Of a stretch of DNA of 33,616 nt, positions 727-22,271 are shown piece after piece. The stretch spans positions 1 through 33,616 of IMG/VR virus record IMGVR_UViG_2778261222_000001. The stretch is one strand, 5' to 3'. The notes under the pieces are model-generated. The model made no database searches and was not told where the DNA came from. It saw only the letters and a program-made list of their open reading frames with translations. The position numbers and the translations under genes are program-made. Every line of letters begins with the position of its first letter. Position 1 is the first letter of the stretch. This DNA is from a virus (lineage: Duplodnaviria; Heunggongvirae; Uroviricota; Caudoviricetes).

Positions 727-832
727 TCGATATGACAATGTAACGTTTACAGCGAGGACATTTGATTTCTATATGCTTAAAGCCTCCTTTAAACAGTAAT
801 TTATTGCAGTTTTTACAGCGAACAGAGTCCAT
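647..832 (-). CDS. com: Com zinc-finger translational activator of mom
   Basis: Translation from the internal ATG at 830-832 gives [15 protein letters not shown]...CPRCKR..., which matches my recollection of Mu Com (Cys4 zinc finger, about 61 aa); AGGGGGAA Shine-Dalgarno 5 nt upstream; overlaps the mom start. Confidence 0.9.
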
Positions 833-859
833 GATTCCCCCTGTGTAAACCAGATACAA

Positions 860-954
860 TCGCCCAGAGGGCTGGGGGATATTTAATCATAATTGATGCA
901 AACAGACGATCGATATGATGATATCGATCGTCATAAACTATACAAAATGATTGT
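860..954 (-). promoter_or_regulatory. Putative com-mom promoter/operator region with a GATC-containing palindrome
   Basis: 95-bp intergenic region upstream of com; inverted repeat at 905-932 (gacgatcgata / tatcgatcgtc arms) carrying two GATC sites at 908-911 and 926-929. Confidence 0.4.
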
Positions 955-1521
955 TTAATCGCCTGATGTGAACGCTCTTACCTCGTCCAGGGTGGACAGC
1001 AGGGAAAGCTGCGCTTTCATCTCTCGCTGGCGCTGATAAATTTCATCATTGCGATCAACCTGCGCCTGAACCATTGCAGTAAGCAGCTCATCCAGTTGTT
1101 GCATTGACAACTTTACCTGCTGATTTTCCGCATCGCACCATACCATGGTTTTCCATGCCGTGACTGATTTTGCTGACATCACCACCGTGTAAAGACGGGC
1201 TATCGAATCCGGTCCCCCGTTCCAGCTATGACCGTTCCATTCAAAAATAAATGGCTGCGCCTCCTGCTCTGTACGCCATGCTTCAATTTCCCGGCGTTTG
1301 GCTGCTTTTGCTGCTTCCAGCATCTCTGACGTGACGGTGAACGGCGTTATTTCTCCCCATTTGCCGCTTTGCAGCTCCTGCCAGACTCGCTGCCCTGTCT
1401 CTGCTGTATCCGTGGCAGTTGCCGTATACGGAACCGGTTCATCCATGCCATCAAACAACACCCCACAGTCAATCGCGCCATTTTCAAGATAACGCGCATT
1501 TTCGATGCGTTTTATTTCCAT
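955..1521 (-). CDS. Tail fibre assembly chaperone (second cassette)
   Basis: ATG at 1519-1521 lies 7 nt downstream of the fibre stop (1529-1531); about 188 aa; position directly after a fibre gene. Confidence 0.65.
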   Translation of the reverse strand: MEIKRIENARYLENGAIDCGVLFDGMDEPVPYTATATDTAETGQRVWQELQSGKWGEITPFTVTSEMLEAAKAAKRREIEAWRTEQEAQPFIFEWNGHSWNGGPDSIARLYTVVMSAKSVTAWKTMVWCDAENQQVKLSMQQLDELLTAMVQAQVDRNDEIYQRQREMKAQLSLLSTLDEVRAFTSGD

Positions 1522-1528
1522 AAAACAC

Positions 1529-2887: not shown

Positions 2888-3377
2888 TAAAGGAGGCTTC
2901 GTCAGTAACGGTGCTTAAATCCAGCGCCTTTACCGCTTTGATATATGCCATCCACTGCGTAAGACGGACTTTGTCATCGTCGCTGATGGTGCCCAGCTCC
3001 AGCTCGGTTTTCCAGTCGGAGGTGATGTCCTTTGCTTCATTCAGCAGGCGCTGGCGTTGTTTTTCCGCCAGTTGCGAATAATCAACAGGAACAGGCAGCA
3101 CTTCGCCGTCCTGGTAATACCAGCAGGCTTCAATTCCAAAACCTTCCGGCAGCTCGTCCACTTCCACAATGGTGAAGCCAGCCGGATAAAGACGGGACAC
3201 GTCTTCCGCCATCGAATAAATCACGCCGGTTTCCGGGTGAATACACAATTTGTATTTCTTCGTGAATTTATCCAGTGATTCATAAAAATCCTGTCCGTCT
3301 TCACTGCGGAAATACTGAATATCCTTACCATAAGGCATATTTTCCGGGTAATAACGCGAAACGTTTCTTAGTTCCAT
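2847..3377 (-). CDS. Tail fibre assembly chaperone (Tfa-like)
   Basis: ATG at 3375-3377 preceded by AAGGAG 7 nt upstream; C-terminus ...NAINWPERP resembles the lambda Tfa C-terminus; follows the Mu-type fibre. Confidence 0.75.
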   Translation of the reverse strand: MELRNVSRYYPENMPYGKDIQYFRSEDGQDFYESLDKFTKKYKLCIHPETGVIYSMAEDVSRLYPAGFTIVEVDELPEGFGIEACWYYQDGEVLPVPVDYSQLAEKQRQRLLNEAKDITSDWKTELELGTISDDDKVRLTQWMAYIKAVKALDLSTVTDEASFNAINWPERPDAAA

Positions 3378-3391
3378 TGTTTTCTCCTTAA

Positions 3392-4387
3392 TTAACCTGA
3401 TACGGTGCGCCATGAACCATTGATATAAATCTGCGCGGATTTGTAATACACACCACCGATGTTATCCGCCGAACTTCTTCCCGTATCCTGGACATAAATT
3501 CCCGACAACTGACAGCCTGAAGGCGCGCGGAACGTCCAGGTGATTTCGTTACCACCCGGGTTGTAAAACACCTCATTGGTGTACTGAAAATTACGCACAG
3601 CGCCGGAATCGGTGGTGCTGATGGTGATATCGCTGGAGCCATCAAACGGTACATTGTTAATCCTGCGAGGGGTTTGTAGTTTTGTGGCAGTTGCTGCGTT
3701 GAAGCTGTCTTTTGATGTAAACACCTGCGCCCATTCAGACCAGGCTGCATCAGTGGTATCACGCCTTGAGCGAATATAAACCGGAGCATGCGCACCGCTC
3801 GTGCCACTCCAGCCAATCAGCAGTTCGCCTTCGCCAGATGCTGCCGCACCTTTCAGATGCAGAACATTGCCATAAGCAGTGGGATAGCCGTTGCTGTACG
3901 CTTCATACATCTGAAGTCCTGCATAGCCTTGTGCTGTACCGCTTAATGCTGTCACCGGCCCTTTTGATAAAAGGATGTCTGGTGACAGGCCGATTGCTTT
4001 AATAAATTCACTGGCGCTGTTTTTCCCGAGAATACTGCGCACAAAAGCACTGAGCGGCGTTAATGCCATTGTGTCTTCGCCGGTAAAATACGGGAACGTA
4101 TTATTCTGACCGGTTAATCCGGCAATAGCACCGGCTGAACCACTGTTCGTAATAAACAGTTTTTTCAGCGCTGTCATAATCTGGTTGGTGGTATTTTTAT
4201 CCGGTTTGATATTTGCCTGCCGGAGAATTTCCAGCAGTTCAGACTGAATAATATTAAACCAGTCCGGCCCCGGATAAGTGGGCGGAATACCGTTCCCGCC
4301 TTCGGTAAAATAAAGCGTTGTTTTGCTTAATTCAGCCGCGACAGGTGGCATCACCGGCACACCCGTCGGATTATCAACATGAAACAT
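3392..4387 (-). CDS. Tail fibre protein, Mu S-type N-terminal domain
   Basis: N-terminus MFHVDNPTGVPVMPPV... resembles the Mu/P2-type fibre baseplate-attachment domain as I recall it; GGAGAA Shine-Dalgarno upstream; 331 aa. Confidence 0.7.
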   Translation of the reverse strand: MFHVDNPTGVPVMPPVAAELSKTTLYFTEGGNGIPPTYPGPDWFNIIQSELLEILRQANIKPDKNTTNQIMTALKKLFITNSGSAGAIAGLTGQNNTFPYFTGEDTMALTPLSAFVRSILGKNSASEFIKAIGLSPDILLSKGPVTALSGTAQGYAGLQMYEAYSNGYPTAYGNVLHLKGAAASGEGELLIGWSGTSGAHAPVYIRSRRDTTDAAWSEWAQVFTSKDSFNAATATKLQTPRRINNVPFDGSSDITISTTDSGAVRNFQYTNEVFYNPGGNEITWTFRAPSGCQLSGIYVQDTGRSSADNIGGVYYKSAQIYINGSWRTVSG

Positions 4388-4390
4388 AAA

Positions 4391-4975
4391 TTATTCTCCG
4401 GTGTAATAATATTCATATTCCGTGCCCGCCAGCCGGTAATGCTTCAGCAGGCATTCCAGCTCTCGGGTCCGTTCGCTGATTAATGGCGTCATAACGTCAT
4501 CAATACAGGTAAACCGCCCGGCATCGTTGTCCGGGACTTCCACTTTCAGCAGCCAGCGATACCGTGCCGGATGCAGCGGGTACATGCAGTCACGCAGGCA
4601 GTGGTGCGGCAGAACGGCCGTCACCTTAATGGTGAAGCCCAGCGCCGCCGCTGCGGCTTCAATCTGCCAGGTTGCCAGCCCGCCTTTGCGGCGGTATTTC
4701 TCCACCACGGCCCGGCGGCGGGCTTCCGTTGTGGTGGCGGCAATTCCGCATTCCGGCAGCGCCAGATATTGCTCCCACTCCGGCAGCAGCTGGAGCGTGG
4801 TTTCCGGTCGCATCTCCACATGCAGACGCGAGGCGTCGTATTCAACGCGGGTTAAACGCTCTGCAAGCGCCCTTAAAAAACGGTTTAAATCCGTGTCGTT
4901 ATCACGCGGCCATGCCTTACCCCGTGGCATGACCTGTTGCAGTGCGGTCAGCCATTCCGTCACGCTGTGAGCCAT
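4391..4975 (-). CDS. Tail/baseplate protein (Mu gp48-like)
   Basis: 194 aa; sits between the J-like baseplate gene and the fibre, as in Mu; ATG at 4973-4975. Confidence 0.55.
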   Translation of the reverse strand: MAHSVTEWLTALQQVMPRGKAWPRDNDTDLNRFLRALAERLTRVEYDASRLHVEMRPETTLQLLPEWEQYLALPECGIAATTTEARRRAVVEKYRRKGGLATWQIEAAAAALGFTIKVTAVLPHHCLRDCMYPLHPARYRWLLKVEVPDNDAGRFTCIDDVMTPLISERTRELECLLKHYRLAGTEYEYYYTGE

Positions 4976-6036
4976 GTCACCTCCCCGATGGTGATAAGCT
5001 CATCCACATCACTGGTGGTGTCTTCCCCGATGTTCAGGAAGTAATCCGTGATACCGGACGTCATACCGATGGCCGTGCGCAGCGAGGACACCGGCAGCAG
5101 CTGACCGGGGGCCAGCGTTTTCTGTAATGCGGTCAGGTTTGCCCGGACGGCGTTCCTGTTCGCCTGGCTGTCCGGTGTCAGACGGATGGACAGGTCGAGC
5201 TTCTTCAGCCTGACCTGCACCGGCCAGACCTCGATGCCGCCCGGTTTACCTACCATCACGCCGGTGGCCGGGTGTTTGTGGCAGAACAGATACTGCTCCA
5301 TTGTCTTCAGGTCGTCCCGTGTGGGGATAATGTCTTCACGGTCATCATAAAGCCATGCCAGCCCGACCGTGCCGGGGCCGTGCCACGCATCCCACGCCCA
5401 CGCGCGGCTGACACCCGGCACTTCACGCGCCCAGATGACGTAATCATGCAGTGCACCGCCCACCGGGGGATTGCGGCGCACATACAGCAGACGGTCCAGC
5501 AGCTCTGCGATGGATTCGATGTCTGCGCCACCGGTGATGCCACTTTCAGTCACCGCGCCTGTGCTGCCCGTTCCGGGCAACGGGGACAGCAGGGTCAGCA
5601 CGGCACCGGCAGCAAGATTGCCCGCCACACCGGCTTCTTCAGCCTGCACGATGACGGTAACCTCGCCGTCCTGTACCTCGCCGGATGTGAGCACCTGATA
5701 CACCTGATTCGTGTCGGACTGCATCCGGGTTTCTGCCGGAAGGGGAGACCGGCTGGTGAAGGTCACCGGCCCGCTGGCAAAGGTGGCCTGCTTGCGGATA
5801 ACCCCTTCATACGTTGCTGTTTTGATAATGGTTTCATCATCAGATGTGGTGGACGGGATTATCTGGTCCTTAATCCAGCTCTGATGGTCGTATAAATCCC
5901 GGACCTGACTGCTGAATGACACGTTCAGCGCCTGCTCAACACTGACAGGCGGCAGCTTTTGCAGGCCGAGTTCATACGCAATATCTTTTTCGCCGTCGGC
6001 AATCAGTTTGCCCAGCGTGGGGATTTCATACGGCAT
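4960..6036 (-). CDS. Baseplate J-like protein (Mu gp47-like)
   Basis: 358 aa; size and position in the baseplate module; ATG at 6034-6036. Confidence 0.75.
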   Translation of the reverse strand: MPYEIPTLGKLIADGEKDIAYELGLQKLPPVSVEQALNVSFSSQVRDLYDHQSWIKDQIIPSTTSDDETIIKTATYEGVIRKQATFASGPVTFTSRSPLPAETRMQSDTNQVYQVLTSGEVQDGEVTVIVQAEEAGVAGNLAAGAVLTLLSPLPGTGSTGAVTESGITGGADIESIAELLDRLLYVRRNPPVGGALHDYVIWAREVPGVSRAWAWDAWHGPGTVGLAWLYDDREDIIPTRDDLKTMEQYLFCHKHPATGVMVGKPGGIEVWPVQVRLKKLDLSIRLTPDSQANRNAVRANLTALQKTLAPGQLLPVSSLRTAIGMTSGITDYFLNIGEDTTSDVDELITIGEVTWLTA

Positions 6037-6478
6037 TAATGGTGGCCTCCCATCGGCGGGTGATTTCGATTGTGAGCGTGGTTTTGTCCGGGCGGGTTAA
6101 CACCACCTGAAAGGCAATACAGTCAGGGATGATGATGCTGGCCGTGACGGTGGCGTTACGGGCGTAACCGGCCCGCAGCAGCGGTTGCATGGACAGCCGC
6201 GCGTAATCTTCCACACGCAGGCGGACATCTTCCGTCAGCTTTTCACGCTCAAGCAGCCACAGGCGGGAACCCCACGAAAAATCGCTGTACGTGTCGCCCG
6301 GCCAGCCGCGCGGGTCGCCGGAACCATCAGGGATGACATCATCGTCATCAGCACGGGCATCGGTGAAAAGGCAGATAAGAACCTGAGTGACCAGCCCCTC
6401 ATCCAGCGAGAGGCCGTTATGGGTGACGGTGATGTCACCCCGTGAGAGCATGTTATTCCAGTGGATTCCTGTCGTCAT
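6026..6478 (-). CDS. Baseplate protein (GPW/gp25-like)
   Basis: 150 aa; position between the spike and J-like genes. Confidence 0.55.
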   Translation of the reverse strand: MTTGIHWNNMLSRGDITVTHNGLSLDEGLVTQVLICLFTDARADDDDVIPDGSGDPRGWPGDTYSDFSWGSRLWLLEREKLTEDVRLRVEDYARLSMQPLLRAGYARNATVTASIIIPDCIAFQVVLTRPDKTTLTIEITRRWEATINAV

Positions 6479-7011
6479 ACGGGCGGTGATGTATTCTCAT
6501 TGTCGCCGTCCTTATGAATGTGTTCGATGAATGATTTACCGTTGATTCTGACATCTTCAGTAAATTCACAGGGACCGACGAATTTCATTTGTTTACCGAT
6601 AATATTCAGCAATTCGTCGGCGGTGAGATTTACCGTTTTCCCTGAAACGTTTAATTGTTCTCCTGTGATTTCAATGACGCCGTTTTCCTTCAGGGTGATG
6701 TGTGATTTGCCGTCCCGGTGATAAAGCCGGACATCGCCGGGGGACAGTCCTTTCGGGCGACATCGCTTGTCCTCCACCGCGATGGCAACCAGCCCGTCAC
6801 GCCGTCCGCCAACGGCCAGCACAATGGCTTCAGAACCTTCCGGCGGAACGGAAGTAAACCCGTAGTTCTGGAAGCGTTCCACGTCGTCGTCAGTGGCATC
6901 TGCCAGCGTCTGGATTTGCAGGTTCTGCCGCTCCAGACTGTCAGACACCATGCGGACAACGGCACGGTCAACCAGCAGCCGCAGACGGCGGGCAATGGCG
7001 TTTAATCCCAT
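6475..7011 (-). CDS. Baseplate assembly protein V / spike-like
   Basis: 178 aa; position after the hub gene; ATG at 7009-7011. Confidence 0.6.
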   Translation of the reverse strand: MGLNAIARRLRLLVDRAVVRMVSDSLERQNLQIQTLADATDDDVERFQNYGFTSVPPEGSEAIVLAVGGRRDGLVAIAVEDKRCRPKGLSPGDVRLYHRDGKSHITLKENGVIEITGEQLNVSGKTVNLTADELLNIIGKQMKFVGPCEFTEDVRINGKSFIEHIHKDGDNENTSPPV

Positions 7012-8072
7012 GTGGCCACCGCCTTTGTTTTCTTCGTCTTCGCTTTCATTTCCGGCATGTCCAGTGATTCAGGCGGAACCAGCGCCAGAACCGTCATCCG
7101 CCCCTGTGCGCCATCCGTCCAGGTCACCCCGGATATCAGCCAGGTGGTTTTCAGGTTCTGAATGCTGTCGTCGATATCGACAAGGCGGTTGGTCTGCCAC
7201 AGCGGGCCGCTGTCGCCCTGTTCGCGCCAGCCTGCCACCGTGATTTCCGTCGTGCGGGATTCCCCCAGCATCCGGGCTTTGTACCATTCCCCGCGAATGC
7301 TGGCCCCGCCCACGGTCAGGCTGTCTTCATTGACCAGAATGCGCGGGCGGTAACGGTTAATTTCCGGGTCTTCGGTGATGTACTGGCGACCACCCACCAT
7401 CGAGGCAGGCTGGCTGTCCCACAGTTTGCCACCGGCACTGGTGGTGCCTTTGATGATGTACTGGCTGTTACGCTCCCGCCAGCTGAAGCGCCCACGGGCT
7501 GCGAGGATATTTTTCCCCAGCACCAGTGACACACCCGCGCGAACGGAAGAGGCGCGGGTGATAATCAGGTTACCCGCCCCGTCAGACGTCAGCAGAACGC
7601 CGCGCTGTTTTGCCAGCCGGTCGAGCAGTTCAAAACCCGTTTCACCCTGTTCCAGAACGACGGACGCAAACGCCTCCCCGGTCGGGGTTTCCGTGATGAC
7701 GGTTATCCCGAACGGGCGGCAGACATCAGCCGCCACCTGTTCAAGCCGCACGCCTTTCCATTTCCCGGACGAATGCACCACAGAGCAGTCAACCAGGTCG
7801 CCGGTTTTGTCGCGCCCCATGACGCGAATCTCCACGTTATCTGCGTCATAGCTGGGGATAAAATCATCAATATACCCCGTCAGCACGGTATCCGCGCCCA
7901 GCCTGACCGTGCAGGGTTGCCCCTCACGAATTACGCGCGGTGCCGCTGCCGACCAGCGGGTTGTCACACTGAGATCAAACTCACCGGCAATCGCTTTCAG
8001 GGAACGGCTGACGGACATTTCCGTCCAGCCCTCCCACAGTTTGCCGTCAACGGTAAGAATCACGGATTCCAT
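7002..8072 (-). CDS. Baseplate hub / gpD-like tail protein
   Basis: 356 aa; follows the DNA circularization gene, as the Mu hub gene does. Confidence 0.65.
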   Translation of the reverse strand: MESVILTVDGKLWEGWTEMSVSRSLKAIAGEFDLSVTTRWSAAAPRVIREGQPCTVRLGADTVLTGYIDDFIPSYDADNVEIRVMGRDKTGDLVDCSVVHSSGKWKGVRLEQVAADVCRPFGITVITETPTGEAFASVVLEQGETGFELLDRLAKQRGVLLTSDGAGNLIITRASSVRAGVSLVLGKNILAARGRFSWRERNSQYIIKGTTSAGGKLWDSQPASMVGGRQYITEDPEINRYRPRILVNEDSLTVGGASIRGEWYKARMLGESRTTEITVAGWREQGDSGPLWQTNRLVDIDDSIQNLKTTWLISGVTWTDGAQGRMTVLALVPPESLDMPEMKAKTKKTKAVATWD

Positions 8073-9346
8073 CAGTCGGTAATCTCCACAGGTTGCGTCG
8101 GCAGAATGAATGACGGATGGCGCAGGCGGTTACGCTGCACGATTTCATCCCGTCGGCTGGTGTCACCATGCTCGCGCCATGCCAGCAATGCGGCAGATGT
8201 GGTTGTGGTCAGCGTCACCTGCCGGGTTTCCGGCAGACGGGCGGCACGCTCGCGGGCATCCGTAATCACGGCCTGCCGTAAATCGCGCAGCGTTCGCCAC
8301 AATGCCCGCTGGTTATTTTCCACCGCCGCCACCGCCTGCTCATGCAGTTCAGCCGCCAGCGTGTCACCGGCAGATAACGCCGCGTCACTGGTATCGAACG
8401 TCATCGAGGCCACGGCATTTGCCTGTCCCAGCAGGGTTTCCAGCACAACTACCTGGCGGAAGTCGTCAATGTTCTTCTGCAGGCTGTCAGACACCGGCTG
8501 ATAACCCGGTGACAGCCCAATAGCAAAGCCGATTTCACCGTCTGCCACGCTACCGGGCTTCACGGTGATATCTTCCGGCAGTGCGCCGGTGGCAACCTGT
8601 CGGGCACGTTCTCCGGCCCACTGGTTGCGTAATGTCGTGTAAACCGCCAGTGCTTCGGGTGGTTCCGTCACCAGATCAACCACGCCGTCGATGAACGAGG
8701 ACAACTCACTGACCAGACGTCCCGGCGTGGCAATAATGGTTCCGGCCATCTCCTTAAAATGGTTCAGCCTGTCCATCCACTGATTCAGTGCTGCCGGTAA
8801 CGTGGGTAGATTAGCTACAAGGTTTTCCATATCGGCCAGAAAGCTGTCGGCCATCTCACCCAGCCCGTCAAGTGCGCCGAACCAGTCGCCATCGTCGATG
8901 GCAGCTTTTACCGCATCAATGCCCGTCAGCACTTCCTGCTGCGTGTTATCCGCCGCAGACGGGAACAGGCGCTCGCCTGCCTCAAACACTTCAAAGGTGA
9001 CATACGCAATGCCATCTTCCTCCGTGCTGAGGCGATGGGTGACCTTGCCAACCTGTACGGTCTGTATCCCGAACCACGGGTGGATAAGCTCACCGGGGCC
9101 GGGAGTATTAAGCGCGTCTAAAAGGGCGTTTAAATCATCCCGGAAGTTTTTACCTGGCAGCTTTGCGTTAATCTGCTGTTGCCCCGGAACAGCCCCGTTA
9201 TCATCCGTCCAGGCGGTTTCGCGCCGGGGATACGCGCGGGGAATCGCTCTGCGGCCACCGGTGCCTTCCGTATCCACCAGAAAGAAGGGGACGCCGCGAA
9301 ACGAGGCGTCGCGCAGCCCGTCCCATTTGCCTTTGCCTGTTGTCAT
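8072..9346 (-). CDS. DNA circularization protein (Mu N-like)
   Basis: 424 aa; position directly after the tape measure gene; start overlaps the tape-measure stop (TAATG). Confidence 0.75.
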   Translation of the reverse strand: MTTGKGKWDGLRDASFRGVPFFLVDTEGTGGRRAIPRAYPRRETAWTDDNGAVPGQQQINAKLPGKNFRDDLNALLDALNTPGPGELIHPWFGIQTVQVGKVTHRLSTEEDGIAYVTFEVFEAGERLFPSAADNTQQEVLTGIDAVKAAIDDGDWFGALDGLGEMADSFLADMENLVANLPTLPAALNQWMDRLNHFKEMAGTIIATPGRLVSELSSFIDGVVDLVTEPPEALAVYTTLRNQWAGERARQVATGALPEDITVKPGSVADGEIGFAIGLSPGYQPVSDSLQKNIDDFRQVVVLETLLGQANAVASMTFDTSDAALSAGDTLAAELHEQAVAAVENNQRALWRTLRDLRQAVITDARERAARLPETRQVTLTTTTSAALLAWREHGDTSRRDEIVQRNRLRHPSFILPTQPVEITD

Positions 9347-11157
9347 TACCCTTGCTCCACGCTGGTGACGCCAGCCTGCGCACTGAGTCTGACGCCGGGT
9401 TGATCCACTCTGACGCTTTTCACGCGGGCGTCACCTTCCACCACCACACGGATTTCCCCCTGCAATTGCTGCGGAAGGAAAGGATAATTCTGTGTGGGTT
9501 GCATACCTGCCCACGGTCGCGGGTCGGCAATGTTCTTTTTCTCCAGAGAGTTAAACCAGTTCTTGATATCCGTCCATACCGTCGGGCGGTTGTTGTTTTC
9601 CTGAACCCGTGCGATTAACGCATCTGCTTCCTCTTTATTCTTTGGGAAAGCCGAGAGCACCATATCAAGGAGATTAAATCCTGATGCGGTTTGTGGTGTA
9701 ACCAGCGCTGGCGTCTTTGGTCCACGTGAGTTGCGGGATTTTCGGGGATTGCGCGATGAATCCGGTGCATCCGGCAGACCGCCGGTATTACCATTCATCC
9801 CGCCACTACCCATATTAACCACATAAACCGGCATCACACCGGAGCCGAAAACATCCGTGATGCCACCGGGTATCCCTTTGCCTTTCCCTTTGGGATTCAT
9901 TATGCCGTGGATGGTTTTACCGAACTGATACGTCTTTCTGATGGCGATAATGCCGCCCAGCGCAATCGCCATATATTTACCGACCTGCAACCAGTTCTGG
10001 ACAGTGTTCTGGTCCACGCTGTTAATGGCATCAGCCAGATCCTGAACGGGTTTTGCCAGCTGGTTGTGGGAGAATTTTTTCCAGCTGGTTTCCAGCGCCT
10101 GCATGGCCGACGTAAAATCCTGTGCAGCATACGCGGCATCTTTCATGATGCCTTTACCATCACCGACGACTTTCATATAACGTTGCAGGTTTTCTGCACC
10201 TTTGCCTGACGTTACGCTGCTTAAAAGCATGACTGAATCCTGGTTAAAACCGGCTTCAATCAGCCTTTTATTTTGTTCTTCTGCGCCCCGGTTCCCTGAT
10301 TTTCTGGCAATCTCCTGAAGCAATAGTGGAAGCGAGCGCATCCGGCCATCTTTCCCGTAAACATCAATGCCATTTGTCCGCAATGTTTTTACAACCTTAG
10401 GAAGCTGTAAATCACGGATCAGGTTTTCAACAGCGGTTGCGGCGGTATCACGGTTCCCTGTGGCATCAACGGCAGATTCAAGTGCAACCCCTACGTCCTT
10501 GACACCCTGCACACCACGTCCGCCCGCAGCGGAATACAGCGACATCGCACGGGTTGCTTTTTCTGCGATGTCTTTCAGTTCATAGGCACCTTCTTTTCCC
10601 AGCAGGTTCAGAGTATCCATTGCCTTTAAGGCTTCGTTTTCATCCTTGATGCCGAACTTCGTAAACTGAGAAAACAGCGAGCCGATGGATTCGCCTGAAC
10701 TTCCGGAAGCGGCGATAGATGCCGCCATCATTTCTTTGTTTTTAACACCAAAATCAATCTCACCCGTCACGGTGCCGACTTTTTCCACTGCGCTTATCAG
10801 TTCACTGTCATCAACCTTAAATTTGATGGCGGCGTCCTGAATACCATTCAGCATCTGTGCCATTTCGTCGCGCGTCTTTTCTGCGGCAATACCAATACGG
10901 GTCATCCGGCGATCCACCTGCGCAAACTCACGCATCATGGCGCTACCCGCAAAACCGGCAATCATCGCCGTGTAGCGGTTACCCAGCGTATCAAGGCCGC
11001 GTCCTGCGGCCTCCGTTGTGGCTTTGACAAGGCGCATGGCCTGCTGATGGTTCCGGGCGAACTGCGACATATTTGCGCCGTACTGCCGGGCTTTGGCGGT
11101 CAGGTTCCCGGCTAGGTTGATCATGATTTCCGTGCTGAGACGGTTACCTGTTGCCAT
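9346..11157 (-). CDS. Tail tape measure protein
   Basis: 603 aa, Ala/Gly-rich, with a hydrophobic segment and Gly-rich C-terminal region; follows the tail chaperone ORFs. Confidence 0.8.
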   Translation of the reverse strand: MATGNRLSTEIMINLAGNLTAKARQYGANMSQFARNHQQAMRLVKATTEAAGRGLDTLGNRYTAMIAGFAGSAMMREFAQVDRRMTRIGIAAEKTRDEMAQMLNGIQDAAIKFKVDDSELISAVEKVGTVTGEIDFGVKNKEMMAASIAASGSSGESIGSLFSQFTKFGIKDENEALKAMDTLNLLGKEGAYELKDIAEKATRAMSLYSAAGGRGVQGVKDVGVALESAVDATGNRDTAATAVENLIRDLQLPKVVKTLRTNGIDVYGKDGRMRSLPLLLQEIARKSGNRGAEEQNKRLIEAGFNQDSVMLLSSVTSGKGAENLQRYMKVVGDGKGIMKDAAYAAQDFTSAMQALETSWKKFSHNQLAKPVQDLADAINSVDQNTVQNWLQVGKYMAIALGGIIAIRKTYQFGKTIHGIMNPKGKGKGIPGGITDVFGSGVMPVYVVNMGSGGMNGNTGGLPDAPDSSRNPRKSRNSRGPKTPALVTPQTASGFNLLDMVLSAFPKNKEEADALIARVQENNNRPTVWTDIKNWFNSLEKKNIADPRPWAGMQPTQNYPFLPQQLQGEIRVVVEGDARVKSVRVDQPGVRLSAQAGVTSVEQG

Positions 11158-11353
11158 GCTGTTTCTCCAGTTGCTTTATCAGGCGGAACAGCTGCCTCAG
11201 GGGCAACTGTTCCAGGTACTGAATGCTGAATCGCTGAGACAGGTTAACCAGCAGGTTCATCAGTGCCGCCGCCAGCGGCATCAGTTCGCCCCCGCGTTGC
11301 CACCTCCTCAAGCATGTCATCCAGCGCAGCAGCTTTCGTGCTGATAAGCTCAA
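11144..11353 (-). CDS. Possible frameshift-extension ORF of the tail assembly chaperone (T-like)
   Basis: Open frame overlapping the 3' end of the chaperone gene in the +1 frame and ending 13 nt inside the tape-measure start; position equals the conserved G/GT frameshift location. Confidence 0.3.
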   Translation of the reverse strand: MSLSARKLLRWMTCLRRWQRGGELMPLAAALMNLLVNLSQRFSIQYLEQLPLRQLFRLIKQLEKQHGNR

Positions 11354-11639
11354 GGTCTGCCGGGTGGAGCATTCGCAGCTGTTTCATGTCCAGCGGGCCG
11401 GGAATGCTGCCGATGGCCGCAACCTGACGGCGCATCATCTCCAGCCCCATCAGCACTTCAGAGCAGTAGGCCACCGCCTTTCCGTTCTCGCCCAGTACCA
11501 CACGTTCTGCGGCCAGTTGTGCATCAATCACGTCGCTGGCGGTCAGCTCGCGCAGCTTCACGGTTTTATGCAGGGTTTCATCTGCCGTGCCTTTGCCGGT
11601 CAGAAGCCCGTGTTTCAGTTCAAATGTCATTTCAGCCAT
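11244..11639 (-). CDS. Tail assembly chaperone (G-like)
   Basis: 131 aa acidic protein between the tail tube and tape-measure genes; ATG at 11637-11639. Confidence 0.55.
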   Translation of the reverse strand: MAEMTFELKHGLLTGKGTADETLHKTVKLRELTASDVIDAQLAAERVVLGENGKAVAYCSEVLMGLEMMRRQVAAIGSIPGPLDMKQLRMLHPADLELISTKAAALDDMLEEVATRGRTDAAGGGTDEPAG

Positions 11640-11640
11640 G

Positions 11641-11997
11641 TCACACCTTCACGCATTTTTCACCGATAAAGTTCGCGCTGATGGTGCCTGAATCCTCGTC
11701 CAGCTCCGCCGGGTTATCCGTGGCGGAACCCGTCATCATGTAGTTCAGGCCGTTGTCGCCGTAGAACATCACCGTGACGTCTTCCCAGCTGCTGATTTCA
11801 ATCACGTCCATATCCGCTGCTGCCGCAATGGTCACTTTGATGGACGGCGAGGCCATCTTGCTGGAGATGCCCCAGACCTTGCCGCCGCCCATATGCTGGG
11901 TGCGGCTGAAGCCGCCCGGATTCAGTATGGATTTCCCCTCGGTTTTAATTTCGCGGCCATTCACGCGAATGGTCGCCATGCCAAGAATTTTTGCCAT
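11641..11997 (-). CDS. Tail tube protein
   Basis: 118 aa immediately after the sheath gene; conserved myovirus order. Confidence 0.75.
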   Translation of the reverse strand: MAKILGMATIRVNGREIKTEGKSILNPGGFSRTQHMGGGKVWGISSKMASPSIKVTIAAAADMDVIEISSWEDVTVMFYGDNGLNYMMTGSATDNPAELDEDSGTISANFIGEKCVKV

Positions 11998-12006
11998 GCG
12001 GCCCCC

Positions 12007-13482
12007 TTAAAGTTTGAACTGAATCAGACCTGCCAGCACACGCAGCTGGTTCACCAGATTCGGGTGGCAGATAAAGTTCAGGCGGTTTTTATCACTGCTG
12101 TCGCGTGTCACCTGAAGAGTGTCCTTGTAATCGCTGAAGTTCTCCACAAGGCCCGCAGGAATAAGTTCGGTCTGGCAGATATCCAGCAGCTCTGCGGTGC
12201 ACAACTTCGGCGTCATCACCGGCTGACCGGCATCCAGTGAGTCCAGCACGTCATCATCTGCCAGCTTGTGGCGCGGATAACGGTTCGTGAAACGGTTCTT
12301 GATGATGTAACGGATACGGCCCAGCGTGGCGGGTGACTGCACATCAAGGTACGACACATCCGCATCACCGTACTGATTAACCCGGTACATGGTGATTTCA
12401 CGCTCTATGCAGACGTTATCCCCGGCGTCCACCATGTGTGTGGCAATGCTGTCATGCAGCAGCAGGTTACGTTCCGGCATATCCCAGCGAACATTACGCG
12501 CAGGCGGCAGAATGCCGGTCAGAACCAGCGTCTGAAGCGGACGCGCCGGATCAATGGCGAGGTAATACGCTGCCGTTGCGCCGTATGACGCGGCCCACAT
12601 CCACGCTGGGTGCGGTGACAGGTTGGTGCCGATACAGCTAATCAGCCAGTCATTGCGGGTTTCACCAAACGTGCCTGTCTCGCCGTGCGTGCCACGAAAC
12701 GCCGTCCACAGCTGCGCCTCCATCATTTTGAGCGGCCCCCAGCGGTTCAGCAGTTCATCACGCAGGGTGTTCAGGCTTTGCGCGTCGGTGAACGGGGCGA
12801 TGATATCGGTAAACCACTCCGGGCCGATGGCCGCAACGGCGTCTGCCATTTCCGGTGTCCCGGTGCCGCCGGTAAACGCGCTGGCTGTCACCTTCACACC
12901 TGCCGGGAAGGCTTCACCGGTGTAGTAGTTCAGGCGAACGTCGGCACCGTTGCCGGTGACACCGTGCCAGTTCACGGTCAGCTCCACGGTATCCGTGGCA
13001 TCATCCTTCACCGCAGCGGCCACCTGTGTGGCAGGCTTTTTCGTCACCGCATCAGCAATGGCTTTTGCAATGTTTTCCTTCGTAGCCCCGGCGCTCACGC
13101 TCACCTGAACGGACACACCGTTAATCAGCAGTGCCACCGTTCCGGCCTCTGTTGCTGTCCCCAGCACGGTCAGCGTGGCTTTTGCAGCAGCGCCAACAGG
13201 TGCGGCAACCGGCATTGCCCAGGTTTCCGTGTACGTGTTGGCACGACGCAGCATTTTGAGCATTTCAGCCAGCATCGACCCTTTGCCATAAAGCTGGTCT
13301 GCCTGGCTGTCACTGGTGATGCGGGTCAGTGACAGGGCGTCTGCGCTGCCGGACGATACCGCATGGCCCATGACCAGAATTTTTCGGCTTTGCGCGGATG
13401 CACCATCCAGCGCCTGAGAATTGTCGATATCGATCCAGACAAGCGGGACGCGGATATCATCAGGAATTGAACCCAGCGACAT
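12007..13482 (-). CDS. Tail sheath protein (Mu L-like)
   Basis: 491 aa; size and position match the Mu sheath protein. Confidence 0.85.
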   Translation of the reverse strand: MSLGSIPDDIRVPLVWIDIDNSQALDGASAQSRKILVMGHAVSSGSADALSLTRITSDSQADQLYGKGSMLAEMLKMLRRANTYTETWAMPVAAPVGAAAKATLTVLGTATEAGTVALLINGVSVQVSVSAGATKENIAKAIADAVTKKPATQVAAAVKDDATDTVELTVNWHGVTGNGADVRLNYYTGEAFPAGVKVTASAFTGGTGTPEMADAVAAIGPEWFTDIIAPFTDAQSLNTLRDELLNRWGPLKMMEAQLWTAFRGTHGETGTFGETRNDWLISCIGTNLSPHPAWMWAASYGATAAYYLAIDPARPLQTLVLTGILPPARNVRWDMPERNLLLHDSIATHMVDAGDNVCIEREITMYRVNQYGDADVSYLDVQSPATLGRIRYIIKNRFTNRYPRHKLADDDVLDSLDAGQPVMTPKLCTAELLDICQTELIPAGLVENFSDYKDTLQVTRDSSDKNRLNFICHPNLVNQLRVLAGLIQFKL

Positions 13483-13682
13483 TATTTTTTCCCTCTGGTT
13501 TTGTTGCTATTTTTCGGAAGCGCGGTTATTTCCACATCTCCCTCGGCTTCACGGCGCAGCCAGTAAGCGCAGACGTCGAGACGTTCCCCGTCCGGGGATA
13601 AATGCGCGCCATCCGGTTTACGGACACGAACGCTTTCCCGCGCTGGCTTAATCAGTTTCTGTTCCATCGTCACCCCGTACAT
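13482..13682 (-). CDS. Small Mu-like head-tail region protein
   Basis: 66 aa ORF just upstream of the sheath gene; alternative ATG at 13665-13667. Confidence 0.4.
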   Translation of the reverse strand: MYGVTMEQKLIKPARESVRVRKPDGAHLSPDGERLDVCAYWLRREAEGDVEITALPKNSNKTRGKK

Positions 13683-14259
13683 GGATCACGTCGTTAATTT
13701 CAGTGTGTTCGCCGCAGCGCAGCGTTGCCCCGAGGCGCAGGAAGTCCGGGAGCGCGGCGAGATCAATCTCTTCATCCAGCCGGAATTCCTGCTCCCACGT
13801 CACCGCCCACATGGTGACACCCAGCCCGTCGAGGCTGACGGAGTAAATGTTGTCTGCCCGCACATCAGCAGCCATGCGTTCAGCCCCCATGCCCGCTGTG
13901 GCATCCGACGACAGCAGACGTTTGATCACCTTTCCGGCCAGCACTTCACAGCGCACGTCGCGGGAGTACCCCCACGAATCCGTCGCCATGATGTAAGCCA
14001 CCCAGGTAACCAGACCGGACAGCCCGCCGCGCGGGTTGATATCCCGGACACGCAGGGCCGCGACACGGATACAGCCAGTGCGACCGGACAGATAGCGCTT
14101 CACTTCTTCCGGGCTGTTGAACTGGCCGATGTGACGCTCCACCACGTCGGCCCGGTCAGGGGTTTTCCCCTGAAGTGCTGTTTTCAGCCAGGCCACAATG
14201 CGCTCTGCGGCCGCGACGGTGCTCCCCGGTGTGCGCAGTTCAGGGCGTTGTTCTGTCAT
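13648..14259 (-). CDS. Mu-like structural protein (gp37-like)
   Basis: 203 aa; position in the head-tail joining block. Confidence 0.45.
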   Translation of the reverse strand: MTEQRPELRTPGSTVAAAERIVAWLKTALQGKTPDRADVVERHIGQFNSPEEVKRYLSGRTGCIRVAALRVRDINPRGGLSGLVTWVAYIMATDSWGYSRDVRCEVLAGKVIKRLLSSDATAGMGAERMAADVRADNIYSVSLDGLGVTMWAVTWEQEFRLDEEIDLAALPDFLRLGATLRCGEHTEINDVIHVRGDDGTETD

Positions 14260-14801
14260 GGCAGAACCTCCTTCCAGAAATGACTGATAACCTGTTGCAG
14301 CTCCTGCTGATTGGCAGAAGACAGCCCCAGAAATTCACGTTGCGGAATGTTCATCATGCGGTTATGTGCGCCGACGGTCTGCCAGACCGGATATTTCAGC
14401 GCCCGCCCGAAACACTGCGAGATAAGCCGTTTGTGGGCGCTGACCGGCACACTGCCGGAAAAGCCGTCATTCATGATGCGGGCATAATCCAGCGGTGAAC
14501 CGATACGCACCACGCGGTTTTCCACGATGTACTGGATACTCTCCAGCAGATGGCCTTCACCGCGCAGCAGACTCTGGTTGCCGTGGCGGGTCTTTTTGTA
14601 CCCGTCAGACCAGTCCGGCCAGCGTTCGCCACCCGGACTGGTTTTCTCATCGATGATGCGGCGGCGGGTCTGTGATTCCACCACCGCACCGATGCTTTCC
14701 AGCAGCTCTGCCTGCAATGAACCATCTGCCAGTTTTTCAACGGCGCGGCGGATATCCTCCAGCCGCTGGTCACCGCTGACCTGTACAGAAATCCCCATCA
14801 C
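14256..14801 (-). CDS. Virion morphogenesis / tail completion-like protein
   Basis: 181 aa; position in the head-tail joining block. Confidence 0.45.
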   Translation of the reverse strand: MMGISVQVSGDQRLEDIRRAVEKLADGSLQAELLESIGAVVESQTRRRIIDEKTSPGGERWPDWSDGYKKTRHGNQSLLRGEGHLLESIQYIVENRVVRIGSPLDYARIMNDGFSGSVPVSAHKRLISQCFGRALKYPVWQTVGAHNRMMNIPQREFLGLSSANQQELQQVISHFWKEVLP

Positions 14802-15235
14802 AGCACCCCTTTCAGGTTGTTACGGGTGAACAGCCGGGCATTGGCACCCACCACAATGATTTTCCCGTGGTCGGTTTCTGCCGGGGTGGCATACGTCGGC
14901 AGGCCCAGGTCACGGGTGCCGTTCGCCATCTCACGCAGGGTTTTAATGGCGTCGTCGTAGCGTTTCTGGATCAGCTCCGTGATTTGATTGTCACGCTCTG
15001 ACAACCAGTAAAAAGCCAGCGATACCGCCACGCGTTGCAGCGGACGCGGGATTTCTGTCACCCCCAGCGGCAGCTGGTAGCGGCGGGACAGAAACGAATC
15101 AATTTCCGCTTCGGCATCACTGATGGCCTGACGGATTTTGTCTTCATCCAGTCCGTTGGTTTCCCGGTTAATCGCCATGTTCCAGACAAGATTGCTGTCC
15201 GCGCGTAACAGGTCTTCCTGCGTGATGTATCCCAT
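14798..15235 (-). CDS. Head-tail connector-like protein (Mu gp36-like)
   Basis: 145 aa; position after the capsid module. Confidence 0.45.
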   Translation of the reverse strand: MGYITQEDLLRADSNLVWNMAINRETNGLDEDKIRQAISDAEAEIDSFLSRRYQLPLGVTEIPRPLQRVAVSLAFYWLSERDNQITELIQKRYDDAIKTLREMANGTRDLGLPTYATPAETDHGKIIVVGANARLFTRNNLKGVL

Positions 15236-15546
15236 CAGCCTTTCTCCGCTTCCCGGACAATCAGATTCGGCTCTGCCATCAGGCGGGTGGCAACCGCAGC
15301 GGTCACCGCCACATCCTCACCGGCATGAGACCAGAAACGGCCACAGCGCCAGAACCCGTTTTCAGACACGGCCCGGACGTTCAGCCGGACAGGGGCGTCA
15401 CCCTGTACAGCAACCGGGTCTTCAGCCGGACGTGGTTCATTCGCCTGACCGTCAGCCACAATAGCGTCTGCCAGCGGTGCCGGGTTTTCCTGTGCTGCGC
15501 TGTTCTTTGTGTTTTTCGTGCTTTTGGTTCCTGCTTTTTCACTCAT
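15235..15546 (-). CDS. Hypothetical protein downstream of the major capsid gene
   Basis: 103 aa; ATG at 15544-15546; low-complexity N-terminus. Confidence 0.45.
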   Translation of the reverse strand: MSEKAGTKSTKNTKNSAAQENPAPLADAIVADGQANEPRPAEDPVAVQGDAPVRLNVRAVSENGFWRCGRFWSHAGEDVAVTAAVATRLMAEPNLIVREAEKG

Positions 15547-15550
15547 GGCT

Positions 15551-15600
15551 CTGCCTTTTAAAAGGCAGTTAAAAGGGCATTCACAGCACCTTTTAACTGC
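15551..15600 (-). terminator. Overlapping alternative hairpins between the capsid gene and the next gene
   Basis: Perfect palindrome ctgccttttaaaaggcag (15551-15568) and an 11-bp-stem hairpin gcagttaaaag...cttttaactgc (15565-15600) share the ctgc bases. Confidence 0.35.
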
Positions 15601-15617
15601 GGTTTACGGATGAAGGT

Positions 15618-16520
15618 TTATGCCGGGGTGGTGATGTACGGGCTGTCCACGATCTCCACATCCTTGTACCAGATGTTGGAATCGCCGCCGTTAACCAGCA
15701 TGGCGTCAATAATGAGCTTCGCGTCCGCACGGTTTTTCGGCCCCACCACAAGGGTGGTCGGGCGGATGCCCAGTGGTTCACCGTTGGTACCCTTCATGCC
15801 CCGCAGCAACTCATTGGCTTTTTTGTAGTTCTCCACCGTCAGTGCCGCACGGGAACCGACGGCGGTCTGCCAGAAGCCGAAGCCTGCATTACAGCGACCG
15901 TCCACCCCGTACAGGAATTCGTTATTCTTGAAGGTGTGCTCGCTGTTCAGATCGTCCAGGGCTTCAAACTTAAAGGCGCGTCGCGTCTGCCAGATAATGG
16001 GTTTCAGTACCTGCGACTCATCAATCAGGAACCACGGCTCACCCTTGTCTGATGCCGGGGTGCCGACAACGTTGCTGTACGTGCCGTCACCCAGCGGGTG
16101 GTCTTCATCAAAGAAGTTCTGGCCGTCAAAGCACAAAGTTTTGAATCCGGCACACAGCAGGGCGTAACACAGCTTGTCCGGGAACACGGCTGTCATACGT
16201 CCATAGCGTTCAGCAGTAATGCTGTACTGACCAATCTGGTCATCTTCAATGTGTTCGCGCTTAACGCGAATGGAACTTTCCCAGAGTTTGTTGGTGATGG
16301 TGTAACCATAACCGTCCAGCGTTGCCAGCTGACGCTCACCGACCCATTCTTTGATGTCCGGTAAATCTTTCATCCAGCCGTAGGTGTTGGAGGCTGACGA
16401 ACTCGGCACCTCAGAAGCAATGCGATTCCACTGCGGTTCGACACCACTCAGTCCACGGGTAAAGGCGGCGCTCAGGCAGGTGGTCAGTGCATGAAGGATT
16501 TCGGAATTGACTGCTCCCAT
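15618..16520 (-). CDS. Major capsid protein (Mu T-like)
   Basis: 300 aa; follows the protease/scaffold gene with a TGATG overlap. Confidence 0.8.
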   Translation of the reverse strand: MGAVNSEILHALTTCLSAAFTRGLSGVEPQWNRIASEVPSSSASNTYGWMKDLPDIKEWVGERQLATLDGYGYTITNKLWESSIRVKREHIEDDQIGQYSITAERYGRMTAVFPDKLCYALLCAGFKTLCFDGQNFFDEDHPLGDGTYSNVVGTPASDKGEPWFLIDESQVLKPIIWQTRRAFKFEALDDLNSEHTFKNNEFLYGVDGRCNAGFGFWQTAVGSRAALTVENYKKANELLRGMKGTNGEPLGIRPTTLVVGPKNRADAKLIIDAMLVNGGDSNIWYKDVEIVDSPYITTPA

Positions 16521-17482
16521 CAGTTATTCTCCTGTTTTGGTTTAGCGGCGAGGAACTCTTCCCCGGTAATACCCATGCTGCGACACATCGCCAGTTCGGC
16601 GTCGGTCAGTGTCTCCGCGGGTTTATCCTTGCCCTGGCTGGGCTTGTCGTTGTTCACCAGCGGCTGTGTGCCTTTGGTGTATTCCGCAAACTGTTTGCGG
16701 CCTTCTTCCGTGCGGCAGGTGGCAAGGAACATGTCACGGTTTGCCGGGGCCACTTTTCCGGCTTCGATGGCCGCATCCACAAGCGCCCCGGCTTCCTTCT
16801 CTTCCAGTTGCTGAAGGCGTTTTTCTGCGGTTTCGGCACGGTTCAGTGCCAGATTGTGGGTTTCCACCGGCACAAACTTCGTCAGATCAGGTGTCTGTGC
16901 GCGGTTCAGCGCCACCTGTTCGTTCTCCTGAAGTTGTTTAATGGCAGCCACGGTATCGTCCACCGTGGCGGATTCAGCCAGCCCAAGCAGGCCGGTGATT
17001 TGCACAGGTACTGTCATCGGGTTTTTCTCCGTATTCAGTGCAGGAAAATCCAGGTTAGGTTTGTTGGTCAGCCCGACGCTGGACAGGCGCGTCACCACAC
17101 CGTCTGCGTCAAAGAAAAACGCCGGGCTGTAATAGCGGTAGCGACGCTCACTCAGCATCCACCGGGCGTACTCGCTCCAGACAACACGGCCTTCAATGGT
17201 GCCGCCATCCGTCACCCGCAGTTCTTCCACCCAGCCATACGCCGGGGCTTCATCACCGCGTTGCCCTTTAATTTCGGTGGCATGTTCAATGTCCACCGGA
17301 ATTTTGATGTCGGACGAACGGGCGATCACCTCATGCGGATTGCGGTTAATCCACGTCCGTCCATCGCGCCCGGTAAACTCACCCGCAGGGACGAGCTCAA
17401 GCCATTCCGGCAGTTGAGCAGGTGTCAGCTCAGGGATGGGTTCTGGCAGGGAAAAACACAGCGCCAGCAGTTCCGGTTGCAT
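16520..17482 (-). CDS. Prohead protease / scaffold protein (Mu I-like)
   Basis: 320 aa with a coiled-coil C-terminal half; GGAG Shine-Dalgarno 7 nt upstream of the ATG at 17480-17482. Confidence 0.75.
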   Translation of the reverse strand: MQPELLALCFSLPEPIPELTPAQLPEWLELVPAGEFTGRDGRTWINRNPHEVIARSSDIKIPVDIEHATEIKGQRGDEAPAYGWVEELRVTDGGTIEGRVVWSEYARWMLSERRYRYYSPAFFFDADGVVTRLSSVGLTNKPNLDFPALNTEKNPMTVPVQITGLLGLAESATVDDTVAAIKQLQENEQVALNRAQTPDLTKFVPVETHNLALNRAETAEKRLQQLEEKEAGALVDAAIEAGKVAPANRDMFLATCRTEEGRKQFAEYTKGTQPLVNNDKPSQGKDKPAETLTDAELAMCRSMGITGEEFLAAKPKQENN

Positions 17483-17530
17483 GTCAGTCTCCGTCGTTTG
17501 GGGTTACCGACGGTCAGTATGCGGAAGGCA

Positions 17531-17556
17531 GAAAAAAAGCCGGATTTACCGGCTTC
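17531..17556 (-). terminator. Rho-independent terminator (minus strand), copy 1 of a repeated element
   Basis: On the minus strand: 7-bp stem aagccgg, loop taaat, stem ccggctt, followed by seven T; lies between the F-like gene and the protease gene. Confidence 0.6.
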
Positions 17557-17695
17557 ACTGAAAACAGGGAAATACCCCCTTCAAAACCACTTCAAAAACG
17601 CCACAGCACCTTCAAAAAAGTCAGAATGCACATTCACGCCATCAGAATAAAAAACGCGATTCTGGTGCGTTTCAGGGGGATTTACGGCGGGAGGG

Positions 17696-18460
17696 TTACT
17701 CACTGTCAAAACGGGCCTGTTTTGTCGCCAGCTGGCGCGCCAGCTCCTGCTCACGGTTTATGCCGGGATTGTAGTTCCAGCCCGGATCAATCCCTTCCGG
17801 CACATCTTCCTCTTCGCCCGTACGTTTGTTCACCCAGCGGACAGTTCTAATTTCCGGCGCTTCGGTGTGAATGGTGCCCTGTGCCGCCAGTTGTGCATAT
17901 TCACCACGGCTGACCTGACGGATGGTGCATTTGCAGCCCCAGCCGTTAGGGGCAAAATGCGTCTGCCAGAACGGATGATCTACCGGCAGACACAGACGCG
18001 CCCATTTCACATGCTCCGCCCGGTGCTCGCGGGATGGCCCCAGCTCATAAATCAGATACGGCATGGCCCGCTTTGTCCGCTGAATGCGTTCCCACTGGCC
18101 CGCCGCGCGGGCGGTGCGCATGTTGGTGTCAAAAATCGTGCGGAGGCGGCGGTCGCTGCCCAGCTGTACGGTGCGCCTTTCACCCGTCAGCGGATCATCC
18201 ATCTCCTGAACGCCCCACCATCCGCGTTTTATCAGCAGCGGTTGCAGCGCCTCCCGGAACTCGCTGAACGTCTGCCCGCTTTGCAGGGCGTCTTCCACAA
18301 GGGCTTTCACATCCGACAACAAATCCAGTTGCAGCATTTTTGCCACGGTGAAGCTGTTCCGGTGCTCTTCCCGCCACACATCCCGGTAATCAAAACCGGG
18401 GCGCAGCTTCTTCGCCTTCAGCCACGCCAGCGCCTCTTTCGGGATGAGAGTTTCACGCAT
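17696..18460 (-). CDS. Head morphogenesis protein (Mu F-like)
   Basis: Position after the portal gene; likely start is the ATG at 18458-18460 with GGGGGA Shine-Dalgarno (track ORF extends to 18517). Confidence 0.65.
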   Translation of the reverse strand: MRETLIPKEALAWLKAKKLRPGFDYRDVWREEHRNSFTVAKMLQLDLLSDVKALVEDALQSGQTFSEFREALQPLLIKRGWWGVQEMDDPLTGERRTVQLGSDRRLRTIFDTNMRTARAAGQWERIQRTKRAMPYLIYELGPSREHRAEHVKWARLCLPVDHPFWQTHFAPNGWGCKCTIRQVSRGEYAQLAAQGTIHTEAPEIRTVRWVNKRTGEEEDVPEGIDPGWNYNPGINREQELARQLATKQARFDSE

Positions 18461-22134: not shown

Positions 22135-22271
22135 GTGTGCCCTCCTGTTGCTCACTACGCTGTAAACTTTCGTATGCAGATTTCAGCGCGCCACTCTGGA
22201 TTTCCCGCCATGTCAGGTTGTGCGCCAGACGGCGGAGTTCATCACGGGACGCTTTACTTATCGGATTCTTT

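Follow-up and report, generated by a model that had tools for sequence, protein, structure and literature searches.

A predicted phage Mu-type −2 ribosomal frameshift in the tail assembly chaperone gene of a Mu-like prophage

Background

Xu, Hendrix and Duda are said to have reported in 2004 a −2 programmed frameshift on GG GGG CGA in phage Mu, which yields the two proteins gp41 and FS-gp41. The present work concerns the homologous gene in IMG/VR virus record IMGVR_UViG_2778261222_000001 (Caudoviricetes); the stretch analysed, called the window here, comprises positions 1 to 33,616 of that record, 33,616 nucleotides in all. In the window, the tail assembly chaperone gene is overlapped by a second open reading frame (ORF), and an earlier interpretation made from the letters alone (the sequence-only reading) had proposed that the two are joined by a programmed +1 frameshift. 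The evidence set out below indicates that programmed −2 ribosomal frameshifting of the Mu type very probably occurs in the chaperone gene.

For Mu, reviews and the primary literature give the direction of the chaperone shift as −2, through tandem slippage on GG GGG CGA. Lin, Gilbert and Brierley state for Mu that the tRNA-Arg in the A site (anticodon 3'-GCI-5') pairs better after a shift of −2 than after one of −1. The GenBank record of Mu contains a two-piece coding sequence, Mu_56, annotated as 'verified -2 translational frameshift in PMID 15469818'. The −2 direction for Mu is taken here from this GenBank note and from two papers that cite the primary paper; the frameshift junction itself lies at 1827-1835 of locus L001 (phage Mu, AF083977).

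Results and discussion

Overlapping reading frames between the tail tube and tape measure genes

The chaperone ORF (11244..11639) begins with ATG, ends with a stop codon at 11246..11244 and encodes 131 aa. It matches PF23746 (Gp41_Mu) over its full length (E 3.7e-37) and also PF10109 (Phage_TAC_7), a family that puts E, 41 and 14 in one group, and phrog_508; protein identity to Mu gp41 in an alignment is 43%. The gene is flanked by those for the tail tube (11997..11641) and the tape measure (11157..9346), all three on the minus strand. The position is that of a G/GT-type frameshift, as the sequence-only reading had held.

The second ORF (ORF2) occupies 11144..11353 on the minus strand and has 69 aa when counted from a TTG. 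Its frame is +1 relative to the chaperone, or equivalently −2, and is open from 11383; both frames are open across 11383..11247 (~45 codons). The ORF2 stop (11146..11144) falls 14 nt inside the tape measure gene, whose ATG is at 11157..11155. The overlap, the relative frame and the termination within the start of the tape measure gene all agree with what had been noticed from the sequence. Spurious ORFs occur by the dozen in alternative frames of the window's GC-rich DNA, so an open alternative frame is little evidence in itself.

The slip site and its conservation

A slippery sequence and rare codons, which the sequence-only reading had suggested seeking in the overlap, are both present there. 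The octamer GG GGG CGA (GGGGGCGA) spans 11293..11286, with GGG and CGA as codons of the 0 frame. The nonamer that includes the whole preceding codon (CGGGGGCGA) is found with identical sequence and codon phase near the end of Mu gp41. CGA is a rare codon, accounting for 4.6% of the Arg codons in 11 genes of the phage; the shares of CGG and AGG are 16% and 2.7%.

The frequency of the octamer was considered as a significance test and found uninformative, since GGGGGCGA occurs once in the window against 1.6 occurrences expected on both strands. What sets the octamer beyond chance is its strand, its phase, its place inside an overlap of ~45 codons and its conservation in all intact relatives.

Relatives were assembled as 77 viral-contig loci (55–98% identity) and 25 loci from one-genome-per-species contigs, and 84 distinct 200-nt contexts were drawn from them for codon counts. 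In every relative that keeps the run of five Gs, among the 77 and the 25 loci alike, the octamer stands at the same place and in the same phase. It is kept down to ~41–47% chaperone identity, including in loci from Vibrio, Haemophilus felis, Endozoicomonas, Kistimonas and Kluyvera, whose identity is 41–46%. In all 84 contexts the octamer is in phase, with GGG preceded by an NGG codon (CGG in 82 contexts, AGG and GGG in one each) and followed by CGA (84/84); the next codons outward vary, with 15 and 12 types. A gap-free comparison of 55 distinct sequences over 129 nt shows no longer invariant stretch than the nonamer itself.

Stop codons also bound the place of the shift. A stop in the +1 frame lies as near as 6 nt 5' of the motif (loci L014 and L061), and the 0-frame stop lies 27–48 nt 3' of it across the family. 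Pooled over the family, these stops confine the shift to ~35 nt, from 6 nt upstream to 27 nt downstream of the motif.

Three loci have a run of four Gs instead of five, at ~1840 in L080 and at ~1530 in L104 and L106; G and T (the chaperone and the extension encoded by ORF2) are then in one frame, reading '…RGEL…' or '…RGEW…'. L080 was examined as an exception that lacks the motif and was rejected as such: it shares its source genome with L025 and departs from that sequence in single-base homopolymer changes. L104 has additional indels. The three are probably assembly errors or decayed copies; a natural variant that makes GT only is still conceivable.

A −1 slip on the same G-run would re-pair equally perfectly. 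It would meet a stop 2 codons on in the window, and in relatives the −1-frame tail has 2, 5, 9, 13, 20 or 36 codons and shows no conservation. Such a slip would yield no more than a chaperone cut slightly short.

The T extension and the switch of coding frame

All intact relatives contain the T extension, which runs 33–44 codons past the 0-frame stop. Its tail peptide is conserved among them (…NLSxRF…LPLRQL…). In the comparison with Mu-like homologues that the sequence-only reading had proposed, ORF2 is conserved in frame in every intact relative. Towards the T tails of the Mu clade the similarity is weak, with the same length and register (profile-profile comparison by hhalign, E 8.6e-5 over 36 columns, probability 60%).

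Codon-position entropy locates the change of frame. Upstream of the motif, position 3 of the 0-frame codons is the most variable (1.19 bits vs 0.38–0.76). Downstream of it, position 3 of the +1 frame is the most variable and position 3 of the 0 frame the least. The motif is precisely where the pattern of variability changes over to the +1 frame. All four bases occur directly 3' of the motif; whichever is present, the T-frame residue is D or E, but in the 0 frame it can be P, T, H, A or S. Over the part of the overlap from +9 to +35, selection follows the +1 (T) frame.

Direction of the slip and rival explanations

Slips of −2 and +1 reach the same frame, and the −2 product is one residue longer. 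A programmed +1 frameshift would have peptidyl-tRNA-Gly move from GGG to GGC during the wait for the rare CGA, with a 164-aa fusion (…TRG-ELMPL…) as the result. The identical target frame is compatible with this, as is the low share of CGA among the phage's Arg codons, which recalls hungry-codon +1 sites; the rarity of CGA fits the −2 model equally. The four-G variants described above encode exactly the +1-type in-frame fusion. Against this stand the annotation of the identical Mu site as an experimentally verified −2 shift and its description in the literature as a tandem −2 event. Both deposited Mu fusion proteins (P0001 and P0002) are the 188-aa −2 form, and a search of the protein collection found no deposit of the 187-aa +1 form. 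Re-pairing in the P site is perfect at −2 (GGG to GGG); a move from GGG to GGC at +1 is possible but poorer, with 2/3 pairs kept and a mismatch at the wobble. Neither G at the end of the preceding codon varies in the 84 contexts, despite the cost of a rare Arg codon, and both are untranslated in the T frame. In a backward slip tRNA-Gly must have these Gs to re-pair with GGG; a +1 slip needs neither of them, and their invariance favours −2. Finally, the Shine-Dalgarno (SD)-like GGAG at −13 to −10 lies 10 nt upstream of the octamer, and not at the ~3 nt of a prfB-type site. The +1 direction given in the sequence-only reading is not upheld, as the window has the exact slip site of Mu (verified −2) with an invariant NGG, and a +1 slip is very unlikely here. 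On the evidence from Mu and the codon choice in relatives, −2 stands well ahead of +1 and is almost certainly the direction, which in this phage is assigned by homology with Mu.

A −2 frameshift must also be weighed against explanations that need no slipping ribosome. ORF2 could be an independent small gene that starts at the ATG at 11281..11279 and has the G-run as its Shine-Dalgarno sequence. This is how RefSeq treats it: PGAP calls a 45-aa protein, WP_001127483.1 (window 11144..11281; L081 2320-2457), whose start is four codons past the motif, and deposits of this protein come from at least 1000 Escherichia, Shigella and Salmonella contigs. GGGGG stands 7 nt 5' of the ATG and could pass for a ribosome-binding site, and most of the clade has ATG or GTG as the codon in question. 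In seven of the 45 distinct contexts, however, none of ATG, GTG and TTG lies within 14 codons of the motif, and all seven keep the octamer. They are L085 (Raoultella, of the same clade, with ACG), four contexts of the Mu group (Mu itself, L102 from an Enterobacteriaceae metagenome-assembled genome and two Kluyvera loci) and the more distant Vibrio and Kistimonas loci. The M, V, L or T found at the start position is ordinary amino-acid variation. An SD role for the G-run leaves the invariance of the flanking C and of CGA unexplained, and the +1-frame selection over +9 to +35 also speaks against a separate gene. The verified product in Mu is a fusion protein according to its GenBank annotation. 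A scan of 10900..12100 found no promoter or terminator, and thus no such site between the two ORFs and no sign of a separate transcription unit for ORF2. Two findings, which would have to hold together, had been named in the sequence-only reading as speaking against a fusion: a ribosome-binding site belonging to the downstream ORF, and a frame not conserved in relatives. The former is present in part, as the RBS-like G-run with an ATG downstream; the latter is not what is seen, since the frame is kept in every intact relative. Independent initiation as the whole explanation is very unlikely. Transcriptional slippage on the five Gs, with a minority of mRNAs having one G fewer or two more and being translated in the ordinary way into the fusion, would suit the homopolymer run at the junction and the existence of genomic four-G variants. 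Its likelihood is slight, as the known bacterial cases, according to a review, use ~9 A or T, a run far longer than five Gs; the invariant CGA and the fixed-phase NGG constraint are left unexplained, and the literature on Mu describes the event there as ribosomal. A chance open frame in GC-rich DNA, without function, is scarcely credible. Long spurious ORFs are indeed common in the window's alternative frames, and the octamer is about as frequent in the window as expected, but against it stand a conserved tail peptide, a codon periodicity in step with the +1 frame, an ORF that always ends next to the tape measure start and a motif invariant across ~100 loci. This reading is already contradicted by the comparative data.

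The public databases give two residues at the Mu junction: GenBank UIW09302.1 reads …QERG-R-EWLRC… and UniProt P0DJY4 reads …QERG-G-EWLRC…. The R fits the tandem −2 model, and the G fits a −2 model in which only the P-site tRNA slips.

Several points weigh against a Mu-type −2 frameshift in the window. Sequence cannot separate −2 from +1 on GGG-C with a slow CGA in the A site, and the frameshift in this phage is predicted from sequence, not seen at the protein level. Even for Mu, the databases disagree on the junction residue (R vs G). In this clade the G-run, with ATG or GTG seven nt on, could start a 45-aa product, as RefSeq has it. Folds of the window and of its relatives gave no significant or covarying downstream RNA structure.

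Proposed mechanism and predicted products

The gene order, the homology, the identical and conserved slip site, the change of coding frame there and the limits set by stop codons are observed directly; the −2 direction is taken from Mu. The majority of ribosomes would stay in the 0 frame and terminate at 11246..11244, with the 131-aa chaperone, the analogue of lambda G, as their product. A minority would go back two nucleotides while decoding xGG GGG CGA (11294..11286). The P-site tRNA-Gly would re-pair perfectly, from GGG to the GGG two bases 5'; tRNA-Arg(ICG), paired with the rare CGA, would re-pair to GGC according to the published tandem model. Slipped ribosomes would then read 47 further codons in the −2/+1 frame and make a 165-aa fusion, the GT analogue, that ends inside the start of the tape measure gene.

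The roles of the two proteins are suggested by homology with lambda. By analogy with gpG and gpGT, both products would coat the tape measure protein, and recruitment of the tube protein would fall to the rare T extension. The slip would in this way fix the ratio of G to GT that correct assembly of the tail requires, and the virion would contain neither protein.

Under tandem slippage the predicted fusion is join(11639..11286, 11287..11144), 165 aa, reading …EVATRGR-ELMPLAAAL…KQHGNR. P-site-only slippage would give the junction …TRGG-ELMPL…, and a +1 slip would give …TRGELMPL…, one residue shorter. The alternatives predict different tryptic junction peptides: ELMPLAAALMNLLVNLSQR, preceded by …TR/GR, for tandem −2; GGELMPLAAALMNLLVNLSQR for P-site-only −2; and GELMPLAAALMNLLVNLSQR for +1. 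Independent initiation would give an N-terminal (f)MPLAAALMNLLVNLSQR without a fusion. A collection of 15 billion proteins contains no G-T fusion of this lineage, and a PDB sequence search with the predicted fusion protein gave no match at E ≤ 1.

Candidate stimulators

Most contexts have GGAG at −13 to −10 relative to the octamer. Among the 40 0-frame wobbles in the 120 nt upstream, the two that fall in GGAG vary least. The wobble at −13 is G in 96% of contexts, though the codon encodes 7 different amino acids, and the wobble at −10 is G in 99%; this conservation indicates selection at the nucleotide level. GGAG is a candidate 5' stimulator on the strength of these wobble positions. The element is absent in the Mu, Kluyvera, Vibrio and Haemophilus relatives.

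In dnaX the SD element stands 10 nt from the slip site, a spacing used for backward shifts; in prfB the distance is ~3 nt. According to a review, an SD stimulator on the 5' side is prominent in dnaX and in ~56% of the frameshifts of insertion sequence elements, which are −1 shifts. Lin et al. found −2 shifting to be favoured when the spacer is shorter, by 1–2 nt, than the −1 optimum.

A GC-rich hairpin is predicted downstream of the slip site in all relatives, with ΔG from −8 to −14 kcal/mol and a register that changes between clades. Its stability is no better than that of shuffled sequences (z = −0.81 for the single-sequence fold; per-sequence z from −1.5 to +0.2). In an explicit count of pairs, 4/6 are invariant, the core never varies and covariation equals that of the shuffles. 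The alignment fold has a covariation term of +0.28, with one compensatory pair only, ~100 nt downstream. As evidence for a stimulator, downstream RNA structure was rejected on these values of z and the lack of covariation, and the hairpin is kept as a possible element. An Rfam scan of 10900..11900 found no match at E ≤ 1.

It is a tentative suggestion that in this enterobacterial clade, unlike in Mu, the −2 shift may be driven by dnaX-style stimulators, namely the SD element AGGAGGUG (core GGAG) 10 nt upstream and possibly the GC hairpin with its short 5-nt spacer, a geometry reported to favour −2 over −1. If true, no earlier natural −2 site in bacteria would have had its stimulators defined, and the region would offer a tractable system for comparing two-base with one-base slippage.

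Prophage context

Positions 1..33616 are essentially a whole Mu-like prophage on the minus strand, with no tRNA genes in the window. In addition to the genes listed in Table 1, the window encodes a terminase, a Mu portal protein, protease I, capsid T, gp36, baseplate P and J-like proteins and a tail fibre. The prophage has close relatives in E. coli: a 1.1-kb query (11000..12100) is matched in 49/5426 complete genomes (50 records), and identity to the query is 95–99% in 46 of the 50 records.

The fibre gene (2887..1529) has two different putative fibre-assembly/DUF4376 ORFs on either side (region 955..3413). There is no clear invertible cassette of the Mu G-segment kind; a repeat search of 1..4500 gave weak inverted repeats only (73–75% complementary).

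Table 1. Positions of the recoding elements and of other features in the window.
Feature	Position	Strand	Evidence or remark
Slip site CGG GGG CGA (0-frame codons)	11294..11286	minus	same nonamer and phase as Mu gp41
Tail assembly chaperone, Mu gp41 homologue ('G' product), 131 aa	11639..11244	minus	PF23746, PF10109, phrog_508
'T' extension (predicted), −2/+1 frame after the slip, 47 aa and stop	11287..11144	minus	phrog_38797, E 1e-43
T-frame ATG, RefSeq start of 45-aa 'hypothetical protein'	11281..11279	minus	PGAP annotation, near-identical E. coli prophage
Shine-Dalgarno-like AGGAGGTG, GGAG core 11307..11304	11308..11301	minus	10 nt 5' of octamer; candidate 5' stimulator
GC-rich hairpin, 7 bp, conserved core GCCG/CGGC	11280..11264	minus	starts 5 nt after CGA; possible 3' stimulator
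Tail tube, Mu gpM-like, 118 aa	11997..11641	minus	PF10618 Tail_tube, E 5.3e-37; phrog_185; directly 5' of chaperone gene
Tape measure protein, 603 aa	11157..9346	minus	PF10145; phrog_973, E 2.6e-118
Tail sheath	13482..12007	minus	PF04984/PF17482
Mu N-like DNA-circularisation/hub protein	9346..8072	minus	
MuA	33377..31290	minus	transposition protein
MuB	31215..30283	minus	transposition protein
GH108 endolysin	25196..24600	minus	
Mom	738..1	minus	

Significance

The programmed frameshift is real but already known as a kind: the window very probably holds another Mu-type −2 chaperone and not a rare +1 case. Only the SD-like GGAG upstream is mildly new. Knowledge of phage tail assembly or of recoding is unchanged by the finding. 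Its main value is in annotation, as recognition of a Mu-type −2 site corrects the misfiling of the C-terminal part of a protein as a 45-aa 'hypothetical protein'. GG GGG CGA is held invariant across gammaproteobacterial Mu-like phages, and the conserved GGAG offers a cheap experimental handle on −2 stimulation.

Comparison with known systems

The E. coli dnaX cassette resembles the window in that the slip site is preceded, at ~10 nt, by an SD element (in the window an SD-like one) and followed by a hairpin (in the window a predicted GC hairpin a few nt on). It differs in that its shift is −1, and −2 is predicted here; the hairpin in the window is without statistical support.

Lambda (gpG/gpGT) and P2 (gpE/gpE+E') have their frameshift at the same position, before the tape measure gene, and likewise make proteins that share an N-terminus, of which one has a rare C-terminal extension. 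The presumed role is also the same, that of a tail assembly chaperone absent from the virion. Both differ in the slip itself: lambda (G GGA AAG) and P2 shift by −1 on X XXY YYZ heptamers, whereas the window has a −2/+1 frame and a run of five Gs followed by CGA. Lambda G has no detectable sequence similarity to the window chaperone.

Mu is the closest system. Its frameshift is experimentally verified, and that of the present phage is predicted from sequence. The G proteins are 43% identical and the T extensions weakly similar (E 8.6e-5, probability 60%). The 0-frame tail past the slip site is 27 nt in Mu and 48 nt in the window. Mu is also without the upstream GGAG(G) and the downstream ATG or GTG four codons on, both of which occur in the window's clade. 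In other respects the two agree. Mu gp41/FS-gp41 (Mup41; Mu_41 and Mu_56; UniProt P0DJY4) shares PF23746 with the window chaperone, and the gene order (sheath, tube, chaperone, tape measure, N) is common to both. The slip nonamer, its phase and the target frame are the same. The T extension has 50 aa in Mu and 47 aa here, in the same register and with a shared LPL(R/S)x(L/F) motif, and in both phages the T stop adjoins the start of the tape measure gene.

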